A DNA stretch of 64,000 bases from Candidatus Eiseniibacteriota bacterium (lineage in GTDB: Bacteria; Eisenbacteria; RBG-16-71-46; JABDJR01): positions 576,001 through 640,000 of the forward strand of contig CAVXKA010000001.1 of the NCBI GenBank assembly GCA_963762255.1. The letters are read 5' to 3'. The notes under the pieces are model-generated. The model did not search any database, was not told the origin of the DNA, and saw nothing but the letters and a program-made list of their open reading frames with translations. Position numbers and translations under genes: made by a program. Shown one piece after another: positions 24,701 to 45,508 of the stretch (position 1 is its first letter; every line of letters begins with the position of its first letter).

Positions 24701-26749
<2,049 letters not shown>

Positions 26750-26875
26750 GTTTCGAGTGGGCACAATCGTCACCCGTGGGCTGTCGTAGCTTCCACGTCA
26801 GTCCGGGCGGGTCTATATGTGTTTGAAATCAATGGGTTTCGGGGGCCGGGACGTTCAAACCCGCCTGCGCGAGCG

Positions 26876-28624: not shown

Positions 28625-28766
28625 TGGCCGCCTCCGAGGAGGCATGGGGTGAAGACATCTTAGCACCGGGCGCAAGCCGCTCGGCTGCGTGTGCGCGTTC
28701 AATGGCGGCGGACAATTTTTCACGGCGGACCTACAGCGCTACACGCAGAGCCTGACTCTCGAACTG

Positions 28767-29035
28767 GTCACGGCACCGTGATCGCGTCCCTGCCGTAGGC
28801 CCCGGCGGCAGGGCGAGGTGAGTTTCGAGCGAGCACAATCGTCACCCGTGGGCTGTCATAGCTTCCACGGCAGTCCGGGTGCCCGTATATCTCTTTGAAA
28901 TCAATGGGTTTCGGGGATCGCGTCTTCCGAAATAATCGTCCCCAGGCTGCGATAGTGCCCACTCGAAGGGTGGTTTTCGAATGGATAGGAATTATGCGTT
29001 GCCCCCCCTGGATCAGGCCCGGAGGGGACGGCGAC
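28767..29035 (+). repeat. non-coding att-like repeat, copy B (full length)
   Basis: Contains an inverted pair (TTCGAGCGAGCACAATCG / CGATAGTGCCCACTCGAA) and an IHF-like site AATCAATGGGTTT. Confidence 0.9.
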
Positions 29036-29078: not shown

Positions 29079-30650
29079 TCAGATTCGATGGGGGCTGATT
29101 TCCATCCCAGATACCAAACGGAAACTCTCGAGGGCGTATTCGTCCGTCATCCCACTTATGAAATCAATGATCATTCGAAGGCGATGTACCCTTTCCATGA
29201 CCTCAGCCATTCCCTCGTCCCTGCCCGCGTCCTTAGCCGAAAGCCGCACGGCTGCGTCGTATACCGCCAAGTACTTTCTGGAGACGCGACTGAGAAGACT
29301 AGTCTCCAGGGCGATCGGAGCGCCCATCGAATCCTTGTCCTCTTTGGCGCGGATACTCCCGAATCGAGATGCGTCACACTGCATGATTGGCTGATACGCA
29401 GACAACAATCCGCTGAGAACAGCGTATGCGGTAATCTCCCTCCGTCGAACAATCTCCGCAGAGTACAAGTGCTGCTCTGCAAACCGCTTCAATTCACTCA
29501 GCAGCTTCCCCGCATCCCCGTCTCTAAGTATCGGCCCTGCCTCGCCACTAAGGACCGCTGCCTGCTTCACCACAAACACCAAACCTGCTTGATGTGCTAG
29601 AAACCGAATGACAGCAGAGCGAAACTCCTCCATTGGTCTGAGTCTCTCTCCACCTGGCGCCGCGCCAGAATGGGGATCCTTCAGAGACTGCAAGGCAGAA
29701 GCGATGCGCTTCGCTTCATTTCCGATCTCCTCACCAGCCTCACCGAAGTTCATTCCCCCCGCGACGCCCTCAATGAACTGGGCGAACGCTGCCTTTGTGA
29801 CGATGCCCTTCTCTATGCCATCCTCGATGTCGCTTACACAGTAAGCGATGTCATCCGCCGCCTCCATGAGATAGGCGAGTGGATGTCTGCATCCGTTCTT
29901 AAGTCCAAGCTCTTTCCATATTTGGCGTGCTACATCCTGTTCCGTCTGAAAATATCCCGACTTCTTCCTCCCGCATCCGCCTCCACTGCTATCCCCAATC
30001 TCCGAAGTAGACCATGGGTATTTCAGAGTAGAAGCAAGCGTCGTTATGGTCAAGTTCAGGCCGAAGCGATCACTCGTCTCCGCCGCCTGCAGCCTCGTAA
30101 TGATTCTGAACCCCTGGGGGTTTCCATCGAAGTTCTCAAAATCAGCCTGAAACACATTCCATCGTCTCAGGGCCGGCCCACCGAGGCCATCCGGCGCTAG
30201 ATTGCAAATGCTCTGATGAAACCAATCGTTGATCGCACGCTCACCAAAGTGCCCGAAGGGGGGGTTACCGAAATCGTGAAGCAAGCAGGCAGTTGAGACG
30301 AATGTAATGAAGGCTCGCTCATTCCCGGCAATGCCCAGCTCCTTCTTTTGCCGCCCTGAAAAATGCTTCAACGCTTGTTGAGCAACGAACTGCCCAATTG
30401 AAGACACCTCCAAGGAATGGGTGAGCCTTGATCTGACTGCCGCATTTGTCTCTAGCGAGAAGACCTGAGCCTTGTTCTGAAGCCGCCGAAATGGCGATGA
30501 GAAGAGAACGCGGCCACGATCGGCGTCGGCGTTCTCGTCGAGTGTCCGCTTCACGACTTCGGGCCTTCGAAGGCGAGTGCCCTGGAGTAACCGCTCATAG
30601 GGTCGAGGTGTTGAGGCCGCGGTAGCTTTCCTTGCCCCCTTCCTATTCAC
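29079..30650 (-). CDS. dgt: dNTP triphosphohydrolase (dGTPase, HD domain)
   Basis: RRLQNKAQVF, SRLTHSLEV, LLHDFGNPPFGHFGE, EAADDIAYC and DFISGMTD motifs. Confidence 0.92.
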   Translation of the reverse strand: MNRKGARKATAASTPRPYERLLQGTRLRRPEVVKRTLDENADADRGRVLFSSPFRRLQNKAQVFSLETNAAVRSRLTHSLEVSSIGQFVAQQALKHFSGRQKKELGIAGNERAFITFVSTACLLHDFGNPPFGHFGERAINDWFHQSICNLAPDGLGGPALRRWNVFQADFENFDGNPQGFRIITRLQAAETSDRFGLNLTITTLASTLKYPWSTSEIGDSSGGGCGRKKSGYFQTEQDVARQIWKELGLKNGCRHPLAYLMEAADDIAYCVSDIEDGIEKGIVTKAAFAQFIEGVAGGMNFGEAGEEIGNEAKRIASALQSLKDPHSGAAPGGERLRPMEEFRSAVIRFLAHQAGLVFVVKQAAVLSGEAGPILRDGDAGKLLSELKRFAEQHLYSAEIVRRREITAYAVLSGLLSAYQPIMQCDASRFGSIRAKEDKDSMGAPIALETSLLSRVSRKYLAVYDAAVRLSAKDAGRDEGMAEVMERVHRLRMIIDFISGMTDEYALESFRLVSGMEISPHRI

Positions 30651-31522
30651 GCCACATTCCTGTCATCGCGAGAGGGGATCGTGCGTACACGGGATTCTCT
30701 GCGTGAATCGAGAAGAAGATCCAATCTGTTCAGGAGCTCCTCCCGTCCCTGCGGAAATCTCGCGTGAAGAAAGTCCCATTCTACCTGAAGCAGTCCTGGC
30801 ACGACATTCTCTCGCAGCCGACAACAATCGGCATCGGGGACGACCAGCTGTGGAGTGTCTTCTAGAATCCGGACGAGACGTACTGCCAGGACGGCCAACT
30901 CGACGGGTGGCATCTCGTTCCATCGGGGCCAGTTGATTCCGGGGTCACGTTGTTCGCGTCTTTGCAGTACACCAAACGGATCGAGGACACACCCGGTCCC
31001 CAAATGAACCGCGAGCGCATTGATTCGTAGGTCAAAGTAACGAAGTGCTCCCGAAACCGATCGAAATCCCTTGTGGAACGTGGAGGGCTCAGAAATGTCT
31101 ATGTAGCCATCTTCGTAATGATAGCAACGTTGCTGGTGTCGGTTCAGTTCGAATGGCAAACCAAGAGCATCCAGAGCTTTGAATGCCCGGACATCTCCGT
31201 TCGGTACCATGACATCTATGTCGCCAGAATCTCCGAGTTGAAACAATGCTCTGCGGTGGGTACCGCCGACCACATAGGCACGTCCATTTGTAGCGTGAGT
31301 GATGGCGCGAATGACCTCGCGGGTCCTGTGACGCTCTTGTAGCCGCCTCATGAGTTCGCGATACAAGACCGCATGCGGTTCGTCAGGCTGACGCGCATTG
31401 CGCGTTGGCCGCGTGATCGTCCCAACCATTCCTGTGGGCGTCAATCGCAACCAAGAGGGCGGCCGCCACGCACGGACGCCGAGCAGATCACCGGCCGATA
31501 GAGCCATCGAGTGTTTCTTCAT
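30647..31522 (-). CDS. CCA-adding / poly(A)-polymerase-like (class II) nucleotidyltransferase head domain protein
   Basis: YVVGG...GDIDV (DxD), RYFDLRINALA (compare RRDFTINAL) and LDPFG motifs; GTGA overlap with the dGTPase gene. Confidence 0.7.
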   Translation of the reverse strand: MKKHSMALSAGDLLGVRAWRPPSWLRLTPTGMVGTITRPTRNARQPDEPHAVLYRELMRRLQERHRTREVIRAITHATNGRAYVVGGTHRRALFQLGDSGDIDVMVPNGDVRAFKALDALGLPFELNRHQQRCYHYEDGYIDISEPSTFHKGFRSVSGALRYFDLRINALAVHLGTGCVLDPFGVLQRREQRDPGINWPRWNEMPPVELAVLAVRLVRILEDTPQLVVPDADCCRLRENVVPGLLQVEWDFLHARFPQGREELLNRLDLLLDSRRESRVRTIPSRDDRNVA

Positions 31523-31951
31523 GCCAGCAACACCATTAGTGGTCTTGTCATTTTAAGACGGCTTGTCACTCATGAGTATACCCCACACAGGCTACCGAGA
31601 TGTACTAGCGCAGGGCAATGTAATTCGGACCAGCCCGAGTGAGCGGACCGTAGACGGACCGGTCGCTGTCACTGGGTGGCCATTACCGCACGCTACCCTT
31701 TGATTGTAGCGGTCCGACACTTGCTTCTCGATTCCTACTTGGCTGTGCTGCTCTGTACTTGGCGCCAGGAATCTGGTCCTCCGGCGCCATTACCATTGAA
31801 ACGTGCCGGGTCATCCGGAGATCTCCGCGATGACTTCCCCGGCGGTCCATGTGGAAGTTCACCGCCGTAGGCTTGGCTCCCAGCTTCGGGGGTCGGCTCC
31901 CCTTGAACCCGTGCCGCCCCGGCTCCCCAATGGGGTCTGGAGGTTCAAGTT

Positions 31952-32203
31952 ATGCCCTACCTATCGTCCCCGACCCTGACGAAAGCCGAACAGGAAGCCC
32001 TACTCCGCGTGTCATCGGGACACCCCCGCGATCACTTGATCTTTTCGCTCGCCCTCGGCACCGGGCTTCGCCTCGCGGAGATCGTCGGCCTCAACGTGGG
32101 CGACGTGTTCACCGCTGACGGCAAGCCGCGCGGTCGCATCAGAGTCAGGCGCGAGATCGCCAAGGGCGGCCGCGCCGGCGACGTGTTCCTGCCGGACGCG
32201 CTG
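31952..32203 (+). pseudogene. small tyrosine recombinase, N-terminal fragment (copy 1)
   Basis: LALGTGLRLAEIVGLNVGDV..IAKGGRAGDVFLPDAL, then unrelated sequence. Confidence 0.85.
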
Positions 32204-32307
32204 AGGCTACGAGGATGCCTGACGCGGATTAGATCACGCCCGGAGGGGCCGGCGTCTGGGGACCACCGAACTTGTACAAGCCAGAGAATCACCATGGCCG
32301 CAAAGTT

Positions 32308-33219
32308 CTATTCGAGGCCAATCTCCAACTGCTGGTCGCCACCGCTTCTTGCCCGGAAGAGTCCCAATACTCGCTGAGCGTCGGGTTCAGCGACAATGAC
32401 GGTCACGACCTTCTTGGGGTCATTGAACATCATGCGCGATTCACCAAAGTAGCGCTGCTCCTCATGATCGATCTTGAGGTTCATCTTCCCGACCGAGCGT
32501 CCCTTACTCTCCCAGGCAACCTGTGGTGCCCCTCGATCGCTTGGGCGCCCAGGCAATGCCGCCGGTCGCAGATCCCCTAAGCGCAGCCCGATGTTAGATA
32601 CAGCACGACACGGCCAGAGCTCTCCTTCGTCTGCGTCGCCAGCCCGCCATTCCCAGACCACAACTGCGCCATGCCAAATGTCAATTTCGAACACCCTCGC
32701 CGCAGCAGCCCAAAAGGAGACCCCGTATAGTCTGGCAAGGTAGTTCAGGTGCCCCCAAGATAGGCCGCCTTCGAGCAACCTACTCCGCCAAGCATCGCGG
32801 GGCATCAAGAGCGCAGCCGCAAAGGTATCGCAGAGTCTCTCAACCGAGGTACGTTCGGCCTCACTCTCTAGCAGCCCGTGCTCCATGGCAACAGCGAGCT
32901 TTGTAGTTCTTGCTATCTCCAAGTGCCCGATCTCGTGCGCTATGGAGAAACGCCTCCGTGCCGGGCTTGCAGACGAATTGACCACTGCGACATAACCACC
33001 CGCGGATACATTCAGGAGGGCATCGACGTGCAACACTCGGTACTCGACAATCAGTCCTCGTGTCTTCGCGAATGCCTCAACGTCGAGTGCTCTTGTCGAG
33101 TCCCAACCACTCCTAATCGCTTCCGCTAATCTCTCTACGGCCTCTCGCGCATCCACAACACCCATTTCTCTCGCGAGGTTTACGGCGACCCCTGATTGCC
33201 ACACAACGCGTCGCGCCAC
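32308..33219 (-). CDS. ImmA/IrrE family (CapP-like) zinc metallopeptidase
   Basis: RRRFSIAHEIGH and ERLCDTFAAALLMP motifs; HTH-like middle and an extended C-terminal domain. Confidence 0.9.
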   Translation of the reverse strand: MARRVVWQSGVAVNLAREMGVVDAREAVERLAEAIRSGWDSTRALDVEAFAKTRGLIVEYRVLHVDALLNVSAGGYVAVVNSSASPARRRFSIAHEIGHLEIARTTKLAVAMEHGLLESEAERTSVERLCDTFAAALLMPRDAWRSRLLEGGLSWGHLNYLARLYGVSFWAAAARVFEIDIWHGAVVVWEWRAGDADEGELWPCRAVSNIGLRLGDLRPAALPGRPSDRGAPQVAWESKGRSVGKMNLKIDHEEQRYFGESRMMFNDPKKVVTVIVAEPDAQRVLGLFRARSGGDQQLEIGLE

Positions 33220-33222
33220 GAC

Positions 33223-35029
33223 CTAGATCTCACTATCAAACAGGGACCCATCCGACGTCCCGCTCCCCAGTTGATCCTGACTAACCCAGTCAATGTAGAG
33301 CTTCTTCCAGGACTCCTCTGACAGAGGAGATGCCGAGTCCCCGCGCGCAGCCGACGCATCAAACGCGGCCCGCAAGTCCTCCCAACCCCGCTTCTTCAAA
33401 TCAGCATAGGCACGATAGGGCAGTTCCTTCCTTCTCGCGAACGCCCTCAAGTGCCTCAGGCTCTCGCGATATGTATTCTCAAAGCGCTGGTCCTTTCCGG
33501 ATTGGTCCCTCAGCAACTCAGCTGGTGCCACGCCCAAACCCTTCGCAACCCGCCGTAGCTGCACCGTTGAAATCGTGGCCAATTGCTCAGGCCGCGTTTC
33601 CACGTTCGCAAGCGAAGCTGCGTCCAAGCCTGAACCGAGGGCCAGCTGCTCCAAGCTCATTTCTTGCTCCTCACGCAGGGATCGAATACGACTTCCAAGC
33701 CTCAAGCTGTACTCGCGCTCTCGCGATCTTCGGGTCAAGTGGAACTTCATACGGTTCTCCTTGAAGAAGGCGTCAAGGTGACACGACAGCTCTTCAAAGG
33801 TGTTGAACTGTATCTCGCCCAAGATCCTCGTCGGCACTCCCCGCAACATGCGGGAGATTGTGACGTGTTCTGAATGCAGAATGACCAAAGGTACGCCTGC
33901 GTTTGCAGCAATCTCTGCCTCAATGCCAACTCCATGACTGGGGTCATCCGCGAAGATGCAGACGAGATCGGAACTTGCAACCCGCTCCCGGTCGATCCAG
34001 TAGACCTCAGTCGGTGTCAAGGATCGAGCTCCGACCGGATGCGTATGCTCACCAGGAACGTAGAGGGCGAAGTCCGCGCCTTCGCATGCTCCTCTAACGA
34101 TTTCCGTCACCTCGACAGCTCGCGTTTCCTGTTCCGGCGTGGACTGCGTCAGAGGACACGCAAAGTACGCCCGGAATGGTACGACGGTTGGAATGGCAGC
34201 CCCTAGCAGATCAAGGCAAGCCAGAGCCGATGCCGGTCGGTCAAGGGAGTTCTTGGACAGCAGAGATTTCGTCATATCCAGGGCAGCAGTCCAAACCGGC
34301 CCCTTCATGCGCAGCTTATCATCAAAGGTGATGGAATGCGCGATCTTCGCGGCATTGATTTGCTCCGAGTCTGTCGCGGCAGCGAATATCTCGGTACCAT
34401 GCAGCAGATAGTAGAGCGTCGCCCCGAAGGAATAGAGATCGGCAGGATATCCATAATGGTCGTGCTCGATGTACTCCGGGGCAGCGTATCGCCTCGTGCC
34501 CACAAACTTGTTGCCAGATTGAGTGACACCCAGGTCTCTAGCGAGCGGATCACCCCGAAATCGAGCAGCCGCAGCCGGCCGGTTGAGTCAATGTGAATGT
34601 TTCTCGGTTTTATATCCCGGTGAAGACGTCCGGTAGAATGCAGGAACTCAATTGCATCGAGTATTTGGGAACAGAACTGGAGGAGGAATTCTTCTGTTGG
34701 CTCGTGGGCTAATCGCCAAGTATGTAGATTGTCACCATCGAGCCATTCCATCACGAGGAACGGCTTGTCGCTCACATCGAGATGATGCACGCGCACGAGA
34801 TTGGGGTGTGACAAGCGAGACCCTGTTTCGAACTCCTCTTCTTGAACCTACTCCACTGAGCTGGTTCAGCAAGAATGGTGTCATTATATATCTTGAGAGC
34901 TAGAAGGCCCCCCGTCTTGGCGAATTGCAGTTCCCGTTTGGCGGCGACCTTCCATACTGCTCCGGCGCCCCCCTCGTCGATCTTGTCCAAGAGATTGAAA
35001 TCAGATAAGGAGATCGCAATCGCTGTCAT
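33223..35029 (-). CDS. Ser/Thr kinase - nucleoside 2-deoxyribosyltransferase(NDT)-like - XRE HTH fusion (frameshifts near 34830 and 34515)
   Basis: Kinase motifs EGGAGAVW, LALKIY, HRDIKPRN, DFG, GTRRYAAPE and DLYSFG; NDT motifs YFACPL and DRERVASSD..PSHGVGIE; HTH LGSRIRSLREEQEMSLEQLA..LRRVAKGLGVAPAELL. Confidence 0.8.
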
Positions 35030-35271: not shown

Positions 35272-35507
35272 ATGCCGCATCTCTCGCCCGCGACCCTGAC
35301 TCGCTCAGAATAGCAGGCCCTGCTTGAGGTTTCGGCCTCGCATCCTCGGAACCACTTGATCTTCTCACTAGCCACGGGAACCGGACTGAGATTGTCGGAG
35401 ATCGTCGGCCTTAACGTGGGCGACGTGTTCACCAAGGACGGCACGCCTCGAAGCCGCATCCGCCTGCGGAGAGAGATCGCCAAGGGCGGCCGCGCCGGCG
35501 ACGTGTT
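35272..35507 (+). pseudogene. small tyrosine recombinase, N-terminal fragment (copy 2, early TAG)
   Basis: MPHLSPATLT..TGLRLSEIVGLNVGDV..AKGGRAGDV, then unrelated sequence; in-frame TAG at about 35311. Confidence 0.85.
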
Positions 35508-35556
35508 ACCCCACGGGCGCATACAGACCAAGTTGCGTAGCCTTCCGGTGCCCCTG

Positions 35557-36417
35557 TCAGCGTCCGCCCCCCTCGTGTTCCTCGAACCAAAGGAGGAATC
35601 TCCTACTCTCCTGCATCGACAGTTGGTTAATCCCTCCCAGCGCCGCAATGCGGCTATTGTAGTGCGGTACCAGAGCCTCCTCCACCTTCCGCACGCCCTT
35701 GCTCATCGCGACGAGGTCAGTACCGAAGGCTCGGATTGCGCTCAGTTTCGCTGCTGCCAAATTGTCCCCAATAAGGGTCTCGGGGAATCTCAGGACCGGG
35801 TCGAGCGCAACCAGGATGTGAGTCCTCAGCAAGTCTTCGGTCTTCCGATTCACACCTCTGTGTACGAACTGGTGGCGGGCATCGGAAAGCTCCGCGGTTG
35901 CCAGGGCTAGCTCACCAAGGGCGTCGCGGATAGCTCCGTCATTTGGACCGAGCCTTTGCTTCATTGACTTGTACGAGCACTGTCGCGGCTCCATGTCTAG
36001 CTGAAGGACTGCACTCGACGCAATGAGCGTCCTGTCCATGCAAGAATGGAGCATCACGGTGCCCGAGTTTAGGCAATCCTGAATGAACGAGACTTCCGTC
36101 CAGCCGACAGATTCAAGCCACTCACCTGGTGGTGGGGCATCCATCGCGCAGACCAGACGCGCGGCGTTCTGAAACACCTTGTGCAAGGGCTCGATCCCGT
36201 TGAAGACATCGAGAACATACTCACAGACTGGCGGAGTACGAAGTGGTTCGTCATCACTGCTCTCGATTCCCCAAGTGCGTAATGTGTGGGCCAATAGGTC
36301 AGGCCAGTTCGCCTGCATCATTGGGCTGTCGGGAAAGAGCCTCCGGGCGGTGACCCGAGCATTCGCGGCGATTCCATTCTCCATGTTCGGCCGGTTCACT
36401 TCTTCGTTCCCGCGCAT
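35557..36417 (-). CDS. HEPN domain protein (Cthe_2314-like)
   Basis: All-helical composition with an R-x4-H motif (ARHQFVHRG); RBS ggagg. Confidence 0.6.
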   Translation of the reverse strand: MRGNEEVNRPNMENGIAANARVTARRLFPDSPMMQANWPDLLAHTLRTWGIESSDDEPLRTPPVCEYVLDVFNGIEPLHKVFQNAARLVCAMDAPPPGEWLESVGWTEVSFIQDCLNSGTVMLHSCMDRTLIASSAVLQLDMEPRQCSYKSMKQRLGPNDGAIRDALGELALATAELSDARHQFVHRGVNRKTEDLLRTHILVALDPVLRFPETLIGDNLAAAKLSAIRAFGTDLVAMSKGVRKVEEALVPHYNSRIAALGGINQLSMQESRRFLLWFEEHEGGGR

Positions 36418-36637
36418 CCTCGATGATCCTCCCCAAGGGAAGCAGTTCAGCGCATGCCCATTGCGCCAAGAAGCGCCTAAGGACCAGCCGGGTTGGGACC
36501 CCGCCTCTATCCCGGATTCTCTCAGACTATGGTCTGTATGATCTTGCCCCAATACGGTCACCTGGTGAGAGCACACTGAAACTTGTGCTTGAACTCCATC
36601 GCCCTTGGCTCCCCAATGTGGTCGGGAGGTTGACGTT

Positions 36638-37226
36638 ATGCCGTACCTGTCGCCGCCGACGTTGACGAAAGCCGAGCAGGAAACCCTACTCCGCGTGTCG
36701 TCTGATCCACCCCCGCGACCACCTGATCTTCTCCCTCGCCCTCGGAACCGGTCTTCGCTTGTCGGAGATCGTCGGCCTCGAACGTGGGCGACGTGTTCAC
36801 CGCGGACGGCACGCCTCGAAGCCGAATCCGGCTCCGCCACGAGATCGCCAAGGGCGGCCGCGCCGGCGACGTGTTCCTGCCGGACGCGCTGGGGCCGAAG
36901 CTCGTGAGGTTCTGGGGGTACAAGGTGCGGTCGGGCGAGTCGCTTGACTGCCAGCCGCGCCGCTCTTCTGCAACCAGTCCGGCCACCGCATCTCCAAACG
37001 CCGCGTCCAGATGGCATTCAAGACCTGGCAGGAGCGCGCGGGGTTCGACCGGATCTACGGGTTTCATGCGTTGCGCCACAGCGGCCGTGACGAATGTGTA
37101 CCGGGCGTCCGCGACCTCTTCCTCGCCCAACGGTTCGCGAGGCACGCGTCGCCGCTGACGACCACCATCTACACGCACATCGGCGACGAAGAACTCATGC
37201 AGGGCGTTCGCACTTTGACCTGCTAG
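36638..37226 (+). CDS. small (about 195 aa, catalytic-domain-only) tyrosine recombinase, full copy 3 (several frameshifts)
   Basis: Catalytic set R (GLRLSE), K (AKGG), HxxR (FHALRH), H (FARH) and Y (TTIYTH) spread across frames. Confidence 0.85.
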
Positions 37227-37358
37227 CCGCCCACGGCCGGTGGTAGAATTCATGGTCCTGAGTGGTGGCGAGCTTCATTGCTGCCCACCGATTCCCCCAG
37301 GTTGGGGCATCACTCGGGAACGCCGGGCCTAGCTCACGCTGGGCCCGTTCGTTTTGCC

Positions 37359-37475
37359 GGCGACTGGCTCATGGCGCAGCGGTTCGCAAGGCGCGCGTCG
37401 CCGCTCACGACCACCATCTACACGAATCCCTCGGACGAGGAGCTGTTCGGCAGGGTGAGGGATCTGGTCTGCTGA
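37359..37475 (+). pseudogene. tyrosine recombinase, C-terminal fragment (copy 4)
   Basis: DWLMAQRFARRASPLTTTIYTNPSDEEL..RDLVC*, paralogous to the end of copy 3. Confidence 0.8.
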
Positions 37476-37889: not shown

Positions 37890-40561
37890 TCACACCCCAA
37901 ACACCTTCAGCACCTCGTCGCCGTAGTGGTTGATGACCTTCACGGCGATCTTGCCGGTCTCGGGCGGGTCGAACGGGCGGCTCACCGTGCTGTAGAGGGT
38001 CGCCCAGGCGGCCTCGTCGATCTCCGCCCGCAGGGCCCGCTTGAGCTTCTCGTAGGGCTCCTCGGCGCCGGTGAAGTAGGCGTGGCGCACGAAGAAGCTC
38101 TCGCCGTTGTAGTCGGTGTCGATGAACCAGCAGGCGATGTCGTCGGTGGAGGCGCTGCGGATCTGCCCGGTGGTCGGGTCGTAGACGTCCACGCCCTTGA
38201 TCTCGACGACGATCTGTGCCGTCCGCTCTGCGTTCGTGATCTCCACGTCCGGCTCGCCGAAGACCATGAAGAGGTTGCCCGCGCCGGTCTTCTTGAGCAG
38301 CTCGTCGCCCATCGCCAGGTCGGGGTTCATCTTGCGCGGGCAGCACGGTCAGCTTGCCGTAGCGCTTGGCCTCCTCGGCGACGTGCGGGTCGAAGGCGAA
38401 GCCGCAGACGACGAGCAGGTCGAAGCCGACGCCCTGCACCGCTTCCTTGGCCGCTTCCTTCACCTGCTGCGGGCCGACGGTGCCGTGCTCCGGGCCGATG
38501 GAGACGGCCACGCGCCGGGTCTTGCCGTCGGCGTCGGTGTACTCGCCCGCGGCGTGCAGCCACGCCCCGGCGTACGGGTCGAGCCGGTCGAAGGTGAGCC
38601 GCTCGTCCTTGCGGGTGTTCTGCACGCCCGCCTTGCGCAGGTTGTCGAGGATCATGGTGGCGAAGTCCTGGCTGCTGTGCGGGCTTCCTGCTCGGCTCAC
38701 CGTGCCGTCCGTGGTTCTCGTCGGCGGTGGAGAGCACCCGGTGCGGCGAGAGGCTCTCGACCGTGAACGGCCCGCAGACGCGGACGCGCTTGTTGTCCTC
38801 GTAGGGCTGGTCGTAGAGCATCTCGGTCTCGGCGTGGCGGGCGATGGCGGCGTCGATCTCCTGCGCGCGTCATGCCCTTCCTTGATGTCCGGGTTGTTGG
38901 CGATGGACTTGAGCGTGACGTGCGGCACGCGCTTGTAGACGAAGCCCTTGCGGATGTCGCTCGTCGGTCTTGTAGTCGGGCGGCATCTTGCCGGTCAGCT
39001 CCGCTTCCTTCTTGATCCCCTCGGGCGAGTCGGCCAGCAGGTAGTAGGGATACTTGGCGGCCATGAGCCGGGTGCGGGCCAGGGCCAGGGCAACGCGGCT
39101 GGTGTCGCAGGTGATCCAGCGCCGGCCCCACTGCTCGGCGACGTAGGCGGTCGTGCCGCTGCCGCAGGTGGGGTCGAGGACGAGGTCGCCGGGGTCGGTG
39201 GTCATGAGGAGGCAGCGCTCGATGACCTTCGTGTTCGTCTGAACAACGTAGACCTTGTCGATCCGTCGAAGCTGCCCGTCGCGTGTCAGTCCAGACGTTC
39301 GTCAGTCGGCAACGACGGGAAAGTCGTCGAAGTAGCCGCACGTACCGCAAGCGTGTTCTCGCTGACGGCAGCAAGCCGTCCGCGCAGCCGCAAGCCGTGC
39401 CATACCCATCGGTGTCGGTCTTCCAGTAGCTCTGGACCCGGGCGAATACGTCTTGCCCTCGAACTCGAACGGCGAGATCGCTCGCTCGCAGCCGACTGCT
39501 GCGAAGTCAGATCGTCGTGGCGGAACACCGTGCACCCGTCGGGCAAGCGCGCTGGATCCGCTCATCTCTTCGGCGGTCATGCGACGCCGTCGTGCCGTCG
39601 GGCAAGCTCGATCCAGTGTAGTGACCCCGGCGGCTCGTCACCAGCGTCTTTCTCGAATAGAGCTGCCGGTACTTCACTGTCTCACTGGTTCTTCGCGTAC
39701 CAGAGCACGTAGTCGCTCGACGCCGGCGAGCAGATTCGCTCGTCGCACGCCGCTCGTCTTCGCGAACGTGATCATGCGCACAGAAGTTCTCGCTCCCAAA
39801 CACCTCATCCAGCACGCACCGCACCAGATGCACGTTCTCATCGCCGATCTGCACGAAGACGCTGCCCGTCTCGGTGAGCAGCTCGCGCGCCACGACCAGC
39901 CGGTCGCGCAGGTAGGCCAGGTAGGAGTGGATGCCCAGCTTCCAGGTGTCGCGGAAGGCCCGCACCTGCTCCGGCTGGCGGGTGGCGTCCTCGGCCTTGC
40001 CGTCCTTCACGTCGCGCTTGCGCGTGCTGACCTGCCAGTTGGAGCCGAACTTGATGCCGTAGGGCGGGTCGATGTAGATCATCTGGACCTTGCCCTTGAG
40101 CCCTTCCTTCTCGGCCAGCGAGGTCATCACCAGCAGCGAGTCGCCCAGGATCATCCGGTTCGCCCAGTTCTGCTCGTGCTGGTAGAAGTCGACCTTCTGG
40201 TCGAAGTCGTCGGACCGCCGTTGAAGTCGGCGAAGAGCGTCGAGCTGCGGCGCTCCGGCTCGCCGGCCCTTGCGCGCGGCTGCGCCAGCAGGTCCTCGAT
40301 GATCGCCTGCGGGTGGATCTTCTCCTGGATGTAGATCGGCACGACGGGCACGGCGAGGTCCTGCGCGGTCCTGCTCGTCCTTGCCCTTCCAGACGAGTTG
40401 CGGGTCGAGCGACGGGTCGCGCGGGTAGAGCATCGTCTTCGGGCGCGCTTCTCGTCCTCGGCCACGAAGTCGCGCAGCTCCTCGGTCGGGATGTTCGCGC
40501 GCTTGTCCTTGTGGCGGATGGACTCGACCGGCGTCGGGCTGGCGGTCTTCTTCTTAGCCAT
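37890..40561 (-). CDS. type III restriction-modification DNA methyltransferase (Mod), many frameshifts
   Basis: [30 protein letters not shown] and [12 protein letters not shown] motifs across frames. Confidence 0.9.
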
Positions 40562-45375: not shown

Positions 45376-45414
45376 GCCTCCGAGGAGGCATGGGGTGAAG
45401 ACATCTTAGCACCG
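45376..45414 (-). promoter_or_regulatory. 39-bp promoter/leader identical to 28630-28668 (extended -10 TGCTAAGAT plus RBS)
   Basis: Exact repeat in front of two different TWG-tail genes. Confidence 0.75.
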
Positions 45415-45508
45415 CCCGCAAGCTGCACGACGGCCCGCACCCACCCTTGACTCGTGCAGTTGAAGAGCAGCTCGAAAGACCGTCGACTCCAGCGACTTCA
45501 GGCTCTCG

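Follow-up and report, generated by a model that had tools for sequence, protein, structure and literature searches.

IrrE/CapP-type proteases are known for destroying a small free repressor. In the parts of the published accounts that we consulted, CapP and IrrE are activated or stimulated by single-stranded DNA (ssDNA) bound between their peptidase and GAF domains, and they cut their XRE-type partner within the C-terminal oligomerisation domain, in its first helix (Phe82/Arg83 in CapH), whereby repression is lost. RosmerTA, likewise consulted in part, is described as a small mobile module in which an ImmA/IrrE-type peptidase is combined with interchangeable toxic partners. In retron Ec86, according to the portion of the source available to us, a nucleoside 2-deoxyribosyltransferase (NDT)-like domain is a proven anti-phage effector that depends on dimerisation and on conserved Glu/Ser residues and depletes adenine derivatives. 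The kinases PD-T4-6 and Stk2 are said to act as single effectors. Here we describe a two-gene module on the minus strand of a 64,000-nt stretch of a Candidatus Eiseniibacteriota genome (contig CAVXKA010000001.1, positions 576,001 to 640,000; this whole stretch is called the window, and all coordinates are positions in it), in which the presumed substrate of such a protease is joined to two enzymes. The upstream gene codes for a fusion of a kinase, an NDT-like domain and an XRE-type helix-turn-helix (HTH), and the downstream one for an M78 peptidase. We read the pair as a protease-gated effector-repressor module, a candidate anti-phage, abortive-infection or stress-triggered suicide system, with a probability of about 0.5.

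The initial annotation had proposed a protein of about 600 amino acids (aa) interrupted by two frameshifts, and the comparison with P0001, an intact homologue of 602 aa, bears this out. A tblastn search with P0001 against the window returns three colinear pieces, each in another frame, separated by two breaks:

35029-33223, minus strand: fusion gene, about 600 aa, spread over three frames
35029, minus strand: ATG start codon that opens the fusion gene
34838-35029, minus strand: piece 1, frame -2, P0001 residues 1-64, 53% identity by tblastn (alignment A1)
34827-34837, minus strand: frame break 1, between the tblastn pieces in frames -2 and -1
34539-34826, minus strand: piece 2, frame -1, P0001 residues 68-164, 72% identity by tblastn
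34538-34541 (about 34539), minus strand: frame break 2, where the pieces in frames -1 and -3 meet at 34539
33241-34539, minus strand: piece 3, frame -3, P0001 residues 165-596 by tblastn
33225-33223, minus strand: TAG stop codon of the fusion gene

At the first break 11 bases stand against three residues of P0001, which implies that one base was lost or two were gained, and a TAG at 34850-34848 shuts the second frame on its upstream side. At the second break, the one-base overlap of the two pieces fits a one-base deletion. A word-index search with the 426 aa piece found 37 proteins (E 4e-159 to 1e-38, best 60% identity), of which 27, at 588-622 aa, read through kinase, middle domain, HTH and tail without a change of frame; the ten shorter matches (246-517 aa, contig-end fragments by appearance) were left out of alignment A1. 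The window copy has the consensus residue at 144 of the 149 columns conserved in at least 90% of the 27 intact homologues (67/70 in the kinase, 48/50 in the NDT domain and 29/29 in the HTH and tail). Because 37 homologues match at such E values, the long fusion protein is, as a family and judged from sequence, real and far beyond chance. The single long open reading frame (ORF) assumed at the outset is thus intact in other organisms, and the pseudogene devoid of intact homologues that had been considered is not what was found. Among public proteins there is one of 145 aa (P0038, window 33226-33660) that matches the final 145 residues of the fusion exactly; one gene caller or more thus gave just the C-terminal HTH-tail fragment of this locus. 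The nearest cluster in the ESM Atlas is a 'hypothetical protein' with HTH_3 (score 0.94), which adds nothing.

The N-terminal part of the fusion corresponds to a kinase whose landmarks are distributed over the three frames:

34972-34955, minus strand: glycine loop, first frame
34900-34886, minus strand: ATP-binding Lys motif ALK, first frame
within 34539-34826, minus strand: alpha-C Glu region, second frame
34622-34599, minus strand: HRD catalytic loop, second frame
34562-34554, minus strand: DFG, second frame
34195-34538, minus strand: kinase C-lobe with activation-loop Thr, third frame, Pkinase profile positions 159-253, E 1.3e-11
34482-34474, minus strand: APE, third frame

The Hanks motif set (glycine loop, VAIK Lys, alpha-C Glu, HRD, DFG and APE) is complete, as had been claimed, and Pfam Pkinase matches in two pieces, with E 8.3e-19 for 34539-34826 and 1.3e-11 for the third-frame piece. 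Against the PADLOC model PD-T4-6, P0001 covers positions 1-275 of 292 (E 3.2e-52), and against mad6 it scores E 1.1e-51. We therefore predict a PD-T4-6-like Hanks Ser/Thr kinase. Like the kinases of PD-T4-6, Stk2 and MADS mad6, it has every motif of the Hanks fold; those kinases, however, stand alone or belong to other systems, and no description of them includes an NDT-like domain, an HTH at the C-terminus or an M78 partner.

Behind the kinase lies a domain with no Pfam match at E<0.01 (34194-33760, PF05014 included), which we assign to the DNPH1/MilB/NDT fold:

33760-34194, minus strand: DNPH1/MilB/NDT-fold (DrHyd) domain, by AlphaFold model, Foldseek, VIA and profile match
34167-34165, minus strand: Tyr (Y10)
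33993-33991, minus strand: Asp (D68)
33939-33919, minus strand: motif S86-x-G-x-G-x-E92
33939-33937, minus strand: Ser (S86)
33921-33919, minus strand: catalytic Glu (E92), assigned by alignment
33855-33853, minus strand: second conserved Ser

Residues 1-323 of the third piece (window 34194-33226) were folded with the alignment of 27 homologues, and the AlphaFold model has a mean pLDDT of 85.8. The best Foldseek match in the Protein Data Bank (PDB) is MilB, a CMP/hydroxymethyl-CMP N-glycosidase (E 5e-5, TMt 0.71, probability 1.00), and the other top matches are DNPH1, BcmB and nucleoside 2-deoxyribosyltransferases (TMt range 0.71-0.79). VIA aligns the model to human DNPH1 (8rpt) with Z 15.5 and a root-mean-square deviation (rmsd) of 2.5 over 137 of 143 residues, and to MilB with Z 14.7. 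A 100-column profile finds Rcl/DNPH1 at E 0.0017, with P-S-x-G-x-G-x-E set against PSLGVGYE and, further on, S-M--G against LSAMIRG. The single sequence matches the NDT 7m5h (E 0.0084, with Tyr Y10, Asp D68 and the Glu aligned) and MilB (E 0.013); the MilB E103A mutant chain scores 2.7 bits below the wild type, which places the window Glu E92 on MilB E103. In a 137-sequence alignment of diverse relatives three columns are invariant, namely Glu E92, G88 and G119, and at least 90% of the sequences keep the Tyr, the Asp and the two Ser. The NDT/DNPH1-like domain with a catalytic Glu motif, as proposed in the initial annotation, is thereby well founded. Glu, Tyr and Asp have catalytic roles in the DNPH1/MilB/NDT superfamily, and the two conserved Ser, by the role that they have in DNPH1, suggest a substrate with a 5'-phosphate. 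The domain shares with DNPH1/Rcl, MilB/BcmB and the NDTs the fold and the aligned Glu, Tyr, Asp and Ser-Ser positions, and with retron Ec86, in the portion of its description consulted, an NDT-like domain with conserved Glu/Ser, which there serves as anti-phage effector. It differs from all of these in lying below the Pfam PF05014 threshold and in being fused to a kinase and an HTH, with neither reverse transcriptase nor msDNA.

The C-terminal third of the fusion is of a kind otherwise known from repressors:

33667-33798, minus strand: connecting helix of 44 residues ahead of the HTH, from the secondary structure of the model
33511-33699, minus strand: XRE-type HTH, Pfam HTH_3 E 5.6e-5
33223-33510, minus strand: helical C-terminal tail, three helices, model residues 232-310
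33450-33436, minus strand: conserved Leu/Ala motif L249/A253 in the tail

The XRE HTH call stands: besides HTH_3, the domain matches the PADLOC models Control_protein (1e-8) and capH (4.6e-7), and its best PDB sequence match is 7t5u (E 5.5e-4), followed by the controller protein C.AhdI. We take 7t5u to be a CapH construct (its N-terminal domain), going by its numbering beside CapP 7t5t. The model superposes on C.AhdI with Z 12.7 and rmsd 1.2 over model residues 160-228 (VIA). S245, L249 and A253 are near-invariant columns of the tail, whose first helix holds a conserved Leu-Arg motif (33450-33445) and which we propose as the dimerisation and cleavage region because it is analogous to the C-terminal domain of CapH. 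An XRE HTH nearest CapH, with a helical tail, is here fused behind about 430 aa of enzymes, whereas CapH and DdrO are small free repressors.

The second gene follows immediately:

32308-33219, minus strand: IrrE/PprI-type M78 metallopeptidase, GTG start at 33219, 303 aa
32937-32923, minus strand: HExxH of the peptidase
32841-32839, minus strand: third zinc ligand Glu of the peptidase
about 32676-32380, minus strand: GAF-like domain of the peptidase, after the helical middle part

Its GTG at 33219, a start backed by alignment with seven homologues, lies 3 bp past the fusion TAG, as had been noted. Pfam Peptidase_M78 matches with E 5.7e-14 (52.4 bits against a cut-off of 22), PADLOC capP with E 1.1e-28, and IrrE/CapP sequences in the PDB with E 1e-7. 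The model (pLDDT 83.4) aligns with IrrE 3dte at E 1.8e-11 over 267 columns (TMt 0.75), and Foldseek also aligns it with PprI-ssDNA 8sln and CapP 7t5t. H95, E96, H99 and E127 are invariant in all eight aligned peptidases. The build is that of IrrE, with peptidase, helical (HTH-like) and C-terminal GAF-like domains, so that the extended C-terminus, at first taken for something unusual, is the normal helical and GAF-like part. The loop that links HExxH to the third ligand contains no Cys in any of the eight aligned peptidases; the cysteine switch of CapP is absent. IrrE lacks this switch, and some CapP homologues do too, according to the part of the literature consulted. Since the switch is missing, the peptidase sequence is in this respect IrrE-like rather than CapP-like; of the earlier label 'IrrE/CapP-like' the kinship holds, these being the nearest relatives, and the CapP-type switch does not. 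PADLOC RmrA models also match (best E 2.6e-12), over profile positions 138-293 of 380 only, and the peptidase gene has no N-terminal XRE HTH such as RmrA carries. A word-index search with the peptidase returned itself and one homologue only. Complex prediction for the peptidase with the HTH-tail scored 0.00 with the controls not run and is evidence neither way.

The two genes travel together. A metagenome scan with middle-domain patterns gave 19 loci, eight of them (L082-L088 and L094) with the kinase-type gene, and the peptidase lies directly downstream in all seven kinase-type loci that include downstream DNA (L082-L086, L088 and L094), which confirms the linkage expected from the window. 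L087 stops where the gene stops and was left out of this count; L086, L087 and L088, which have identical statistics, are probably one lineage. Fusion and peptidase genes are 3-6 bp apart or overlapping in the kinase-type loci, and in an all-against-all ORF comparison of eight loci they are the only common genes. The module is a self-contained two-gene unit that stands in varied contexts and occurs in scattered environmental bacteria.

Relatives that lack the kinase widen the picture. With a limit of E<=1e-3, an exhaustive HMMER search with the middle domain and HTH yields 691 clusters (50% identity); at E<=1e-10 the number is 265. Among the best 150 relatives, 136 were aligned, and 14 (short fragments or the window's own product) were left out. 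The NDT domain is preceded by fewer than 40 residues in 69 of these 136 representatives, by 40-79 in 24, by 80-129 in 21, by 130-249 in 6 and by at least 250 in 16. Nothing beyond NDT-HTH is present in 69 of the 136, and the 21 proteins of the 80-129 class have a second N-terminal HTH. Pfam was run on 50 relatives, comprising all 43 with at least 80 residues before the NDT domain and seven others; Pkinase was found in 19, of which 16 are the long-N-terminus proteins and the other three are likely P0090, P0126 and P0135, which extend about 420-440 residues past the HTH. Nuc_deoxyrib_tr (PF05014) was detected in 13 of the 50 at E<1e-3, mostly below its cut-off of 28.8 bits. The sole protein above that cut-off (33.8 bits) comes from L111, the one locus found in viral contigs, which encodes an NDT protein with no detectable HTH or M78 neighbour.

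A kinase-less NDT-HTH gene is followed by an M78 peptidase at L090, L091, L092 (21.9 bits, just below the cut-off) and L095, which makes four of six kinase-less loci; L096, whose ORF map is that of L095, is probably the same sequence. L089 ends too early to show a downstream peptidase, and L097-L100 and L107-L110 are weak matches kept outside the counts. Directly upstream of the kinase-less NDT-HTH gene, L089 (1046-1597) and L090 (7201-7755) encode ART-like proteins of 183/184 aa with 74% mutual identity, a call based on matches to PADLOC PD-T4-9_A (1.7e-6) and Pfam PARP (0.003). PD-T4-9 probably corresponds to CmdTAC, whose paper uses the name PD-T4-9 in neither of its two versions. L090 is therefore a three-gene variant with ART-like protein, NDT-HTH and M78 peptidase. 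The upstream genes of L091 and L092 code for unrelated proteins with no family match. Varied upstream genes and N-termini imply that the kinase holds a swappable effector position; on these comparisons the constant unit is NDT-HTH plus peptidase, and the kinase is one of several exchangeable N-terminal or upstream partners (kinase, extra HTH, ART-like gene). The three-domain unit of the initial annotation is thus a real architecture, within a conserved core that is drawn wider than it had supposed.

All the parts are of known kinds, and CapH/CapP, DdrO/IrrE, ImmR/ImmA and RosmerTA are precedents for the switch logic. As in CapH with CapP and DdrO with IrrE/PprI, an M78 peptidase of peptidase, helical and GAF-like parts stands beside an XRE HTH protein with a helical C-terminus. 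Unlike in those pairs, the HTH forms the last third of an enzyme fusion of 600 aa, both genes run in one direction with the peptidase gene behind, and there is no separate regulated effector operon. With RosmerTA, as far as we consulted its description, it shares the combination of an ImmA/IrrE-type peptidase with interchangeable partners in a small module; the HTH, however, is fused to the peptidase in RmrA and to putative effectors here, which makes it likely that the logic is reversed, with the protease as activator and not antitoxin. To the extent covered by PADLOC and by a literature search of main texts outside subscription journals and supplements, we found no description of a kinase-NDT-HTH fusion or of an NDT-HTH plus M78 system. 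The main text of a protease-effector survey (PMC12642450), whose supplements may list such systems, does not contain the words M78, IrrE, ImmA, kinase, deoxyribosyltransferase or HTH. What we did not find described is thus a presumed substrate HTH joined to enzymes, and the NDT-HTH plus M78 family as such. PADLOC returned kinase and HTH models only for the third-frame piece of the window (C-lobe, NDT, HTH and tail), and no match for two kinase-less NDT-HTH relatives.

The domains, the gene linkage, the HTH nearest CapH and the peptidase nearest IrrE/CapP make a protease acting on the HTH protein the natural reading. Gene 1 would hold effector and repressor in one chain: a kinase, a DNPH1/MilB-like nucleotide N-glycosidase and a CapH/DdrO-like HTH with its tail. 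Gene 2 would supply an IrrE/PprI-type zinc peptidase with a GAF-like sensor domain. In unstressed cells, the HTH-tail would oligomerise and bind its own promoter, so that the fusion stays scarce and/or its enzymes inactive. Upon ssDNA or DNA damage, the triggers of IrrE/CapP, the peptidase would cut the tail past the HTH; DNA binding would be lost, the operon derepressed and the kinase-glycosidase part freed. This part might then phosphorylate cell or phage proteins and deplete nucleoside monophosphates or a related nucleotide. As NDT enzymes are dimers, it is plausible, if speculative, that the gate consists in releasing the NDT domain from an arrangement imposed by the tail. If the reading is right, one cut both derepresses and releases the effectors, a compact arrangement for which these proteases offer no described example, and a DNPH1-like nucleotide glycosidase and a PD-T4-6-like kinase join the protease-controlled effectors. 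It would also mean that a sizeable NDT-HTH plus M78 family goes unrecognised by current defence-system catalogues, given that the two NDT-HTH-only relatives found no match in PADLOC. In a bolder version, which we hold only tentatively and consider doubtful as a whole, the protein would be a single-chain 'repressor-zymogen': an effector that represses its own promoter until one cut by an ssDNA-sensing IrrE-like protease releases and amplifies it, its NDT domain hydrolysing nucleoside monophosphates, perhaps phage-type hydroxymethyl-pyrimidine ones as DNPH1/MilB do, and so starving the DNA synthesis of the phage, with the shutdown of the cell left to the kinase; NDT-HTH plus M78 (at least 265 clusters) would then be a widespread undescribed defence class.

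Several observations weigh against a protease-gated effector. Across the wider family the NDT domain is what stays the same and not what varies, a pattern that would also suit a sensor in place of an effector, and the pair is not arranged divergently beside a separate effector operon, unlike CapH/CapP. A crude scan upstream of six orthologues, with uncertain start codons, found no shared palindrome or inverted repeat that would mark an operator, and no downstream peptidase was recognised at the kinase-less locus L093 or at the genome locus L106. Association with defence islands is not general, the neighbours outside the window being mostly housekeeping genes, and the window copy, with its kinase broken, may do nothing here. 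The constancy of the NDT-HTH core (69/136 bare, 21 with a second HTH) and the frequent housekeeping neighbours at other loci would suit a ligand-sensing regulator, in which the NDT domain is a nucleotide-binding or nucleotide-processing sensor that tunes the XRE repressor, the peptidase is an anti-repressor, transcription is controlled as in ImmR/ImmA or DdrO/IrrE, and the kinase is a signalling output with no killing effector involved; the TIR/DrHyd/SLOG class includes non-catalytic nucleotide sensors, as stated in the part of the literature consulted. We consider this rather unlikely: a Glu invariant in 137 sequences, at least 90% of which also keep the Tyr, the Asp and two Ser, argues for catalysis, the upstream partners (an ART-like toxin gene and a PD-T4-6-like kinase) are typical effectors, and no regulated cargo genes are conserved beside the pair. 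Toxin-antitoxin or addiction behaviour of the RosmerTA type, with peptidase and HTH as antitoxin and toxicity freed by loss or titration of the peptidase and not by its activation, would account for the RmrA matches (best E 2.6e-12) and for a small, solitary, patchy module (0/205 phylum genomes) that adjoins an integrase at one locus; RosmerTA itself, in what we consulted, pairs an ImmA-type protease antitoxin with varied toxins in variable gene order. RmrA, however, carries its own N-terminal HTH, whereas here the HTH is on the putative toxin, the RmrA models cover the peptidase part alone (138-293 of 380), and the full IrrE sensor architecture means signal activation in IrrE/CapP, all of which leaves such a system improbable. 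The nearest structures, DNPH1 (5-hydroxymethyl-dUMP N-hydrolase in the entry titles) and MilB (CMP/hydroxymethyl-CMP hydrolase), together with a peptidase nearest Deinococcus IrrE/PprI, could also point to housekeeping after DNA damage, an IrrE/DdrO-style response in which the DNPH1-like enzyme clears damaged or unwanted nucleoside monophosphates, the kinase is a signalling branch and immunity plays no part. This is very unlikely in our view, as vertical conservation is what one would expect of a repair function and the module is sporadic and looks horizontally acquired, and as a PD-T4-6 defence-type kinase and, in relatives, an ART-like gene belong to it.

For the window copy itself there are two accounts of the frame breaks, with the odds about even: either they are real, and both the gene, then a pseudogene, and the island around it are decaying, or the assembly is at fault and the gene is intact. 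The assembly measures 4.14 Mb in 3 contigs, with a completeness of 93.6%. As background sample we took 150 long ORFs of the same-family genome G048; the 61 orthologues covered to at least 80% (90.4 kb) contain 2 frame changes. Against this low rate, two breaks in a kinase gene of 1.8 kb are an excess. So are the breaks, at least four, in the adjacent 2.6 kb type III methyltransferase gene, which is split over five or more frame pieces and contains internal stops. Recombinase genes nearby are fragmentary, and a long homopolymer is found at neither break; all this favours real decay. On the other side, rpoB has one frame change (between ...IRIGA and VRAGDILVGK), rpoC at least two and carB one (G000 C2:1285412-1293342 and C3:588968-592163), and we take these for assembly indel errors because the genes are essential or core. 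The gyrA and secA genes, two uvrA genes and two genes of the dnaE type are unbroken. Three of the four errors in essential genes fall inside 8 kb, hence such errors cluster; completeness is just 93.6% for a three-contig genome, and the kinase keeps 67/70 conserved residues and is otherwise undamaged. Island decay and a locally poor consensus fit the local enrichment of breaks equally, and the methyltransferase gene may have decayed or its stretch may be badly assembled. Given the errors in rpoB, rpoC and carB, any frameshift in this genome calls for read support.

Regarding distribution, the fusion protein occurs in 0/205 other genomes of the phylum (E<=1e-10) and in 0/5 genomes reached via L030, L033, L040, L048 and L053; in the phylum of G206, 5/401 genomes have weak matches only (29-30% identity), and tblastn against plasmid and phage collections gave no match at 1e-6. 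The loci L001-L080, matches to the generic kinase pattern of the A1 genome-contig scan, were rejected as 80 unrelated kinases. The module is held in a low-GC island at 28-38 kb (GC 0.57-0.61 against a background of 0.67-0.72), a composition that, with the absence from 205 phylum genomes, fits horizontal acquisition. Nine flanking genes were scanned at five orthologous loci; among them are an intein-containing gyrB, a RecF/SMC-like ATPase, an Era-like GTPase, a methyltransferase, a radical-SAM enzyme, formiminotransferase-cyclodeaminase-like and beta-lactamase-like genes and one integrase, with two lacking a family match. At L084 (9803-13735), gyrB with an intein (Intein_splicing 5.9e-16) and then a RecF/SMC-like ATPase (SMC_N) stand beside the orthologous module, an origin-proximal housekeeping context.

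Within the window, the island also contains a dGTPase gene (29079-30650, minus strand, 523 aa; NCBIfam PRK04926 410.5 bits against a cut-off of 405, PADLOC dGTPase 3.2e-69). An ORF of 291 aa lies upstream of it with a 4 bp overlap and has no match in Pfam, NCBIfam or PADLOC; together (29079-31522, minus strand) they may form a two-gene unit. An ORF of 486 aa (35557-37017, minus strand) shows a weak Cthe_2314-like HEPN match (E 0.0018, below the cut-off) and is probably shorter in truth, because its first 145 or so codons overlap a recombinase copy on the other strand. The type III-like DNA methyltransferase (37896-40412, minus strand) matches PADLOC PDLC03632 in pieces with E 1.2e-74 to 3e-6.

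Pieces of tyrosine recombinase genes are interspersed on the opposite strand:

31902-32207, plus strand: tyrosine recombinase piece
35272-35527, plus strand: tyrosine recombinase piece
36588-37226, plus strand: tyrosine recombinase piece
37278-37475, plus strand: tyrosine recombinase piece

Among them the 5' part of one small tyrosine recombinase gene recurs in three diverged copies (72-88% identity), which bracket cargo genes; the set includes one nearly full copy and an extra 3' fragment. Two copies break off at the same point, where an opposite-strand cargo gene ends, and the kinase-peptidase pair and the HEPN-like ORF are each flanked by two copies. Further full copies occur at G000 C1:467341 and C1:1408757, and a second fragment array (C2:1146833-1151535) lies beside a type III methyltransferase piece (C2:1152150). 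The copies could reflect nested or serial insertion of related elements. No tRNA gene was found within the window. A 59-nt direct repeat of 90% identity (28630-28688 and 45376-45434), its copies spaced by 16.7 kb, encloses the low-GC stretch together with the methyltransferase and several more ORFs up to 45.4 kb, and the two copies are possible island ends. Just to the left lies a 165-nt repeat of 87% identity (26695-26859 and 28767-28931).

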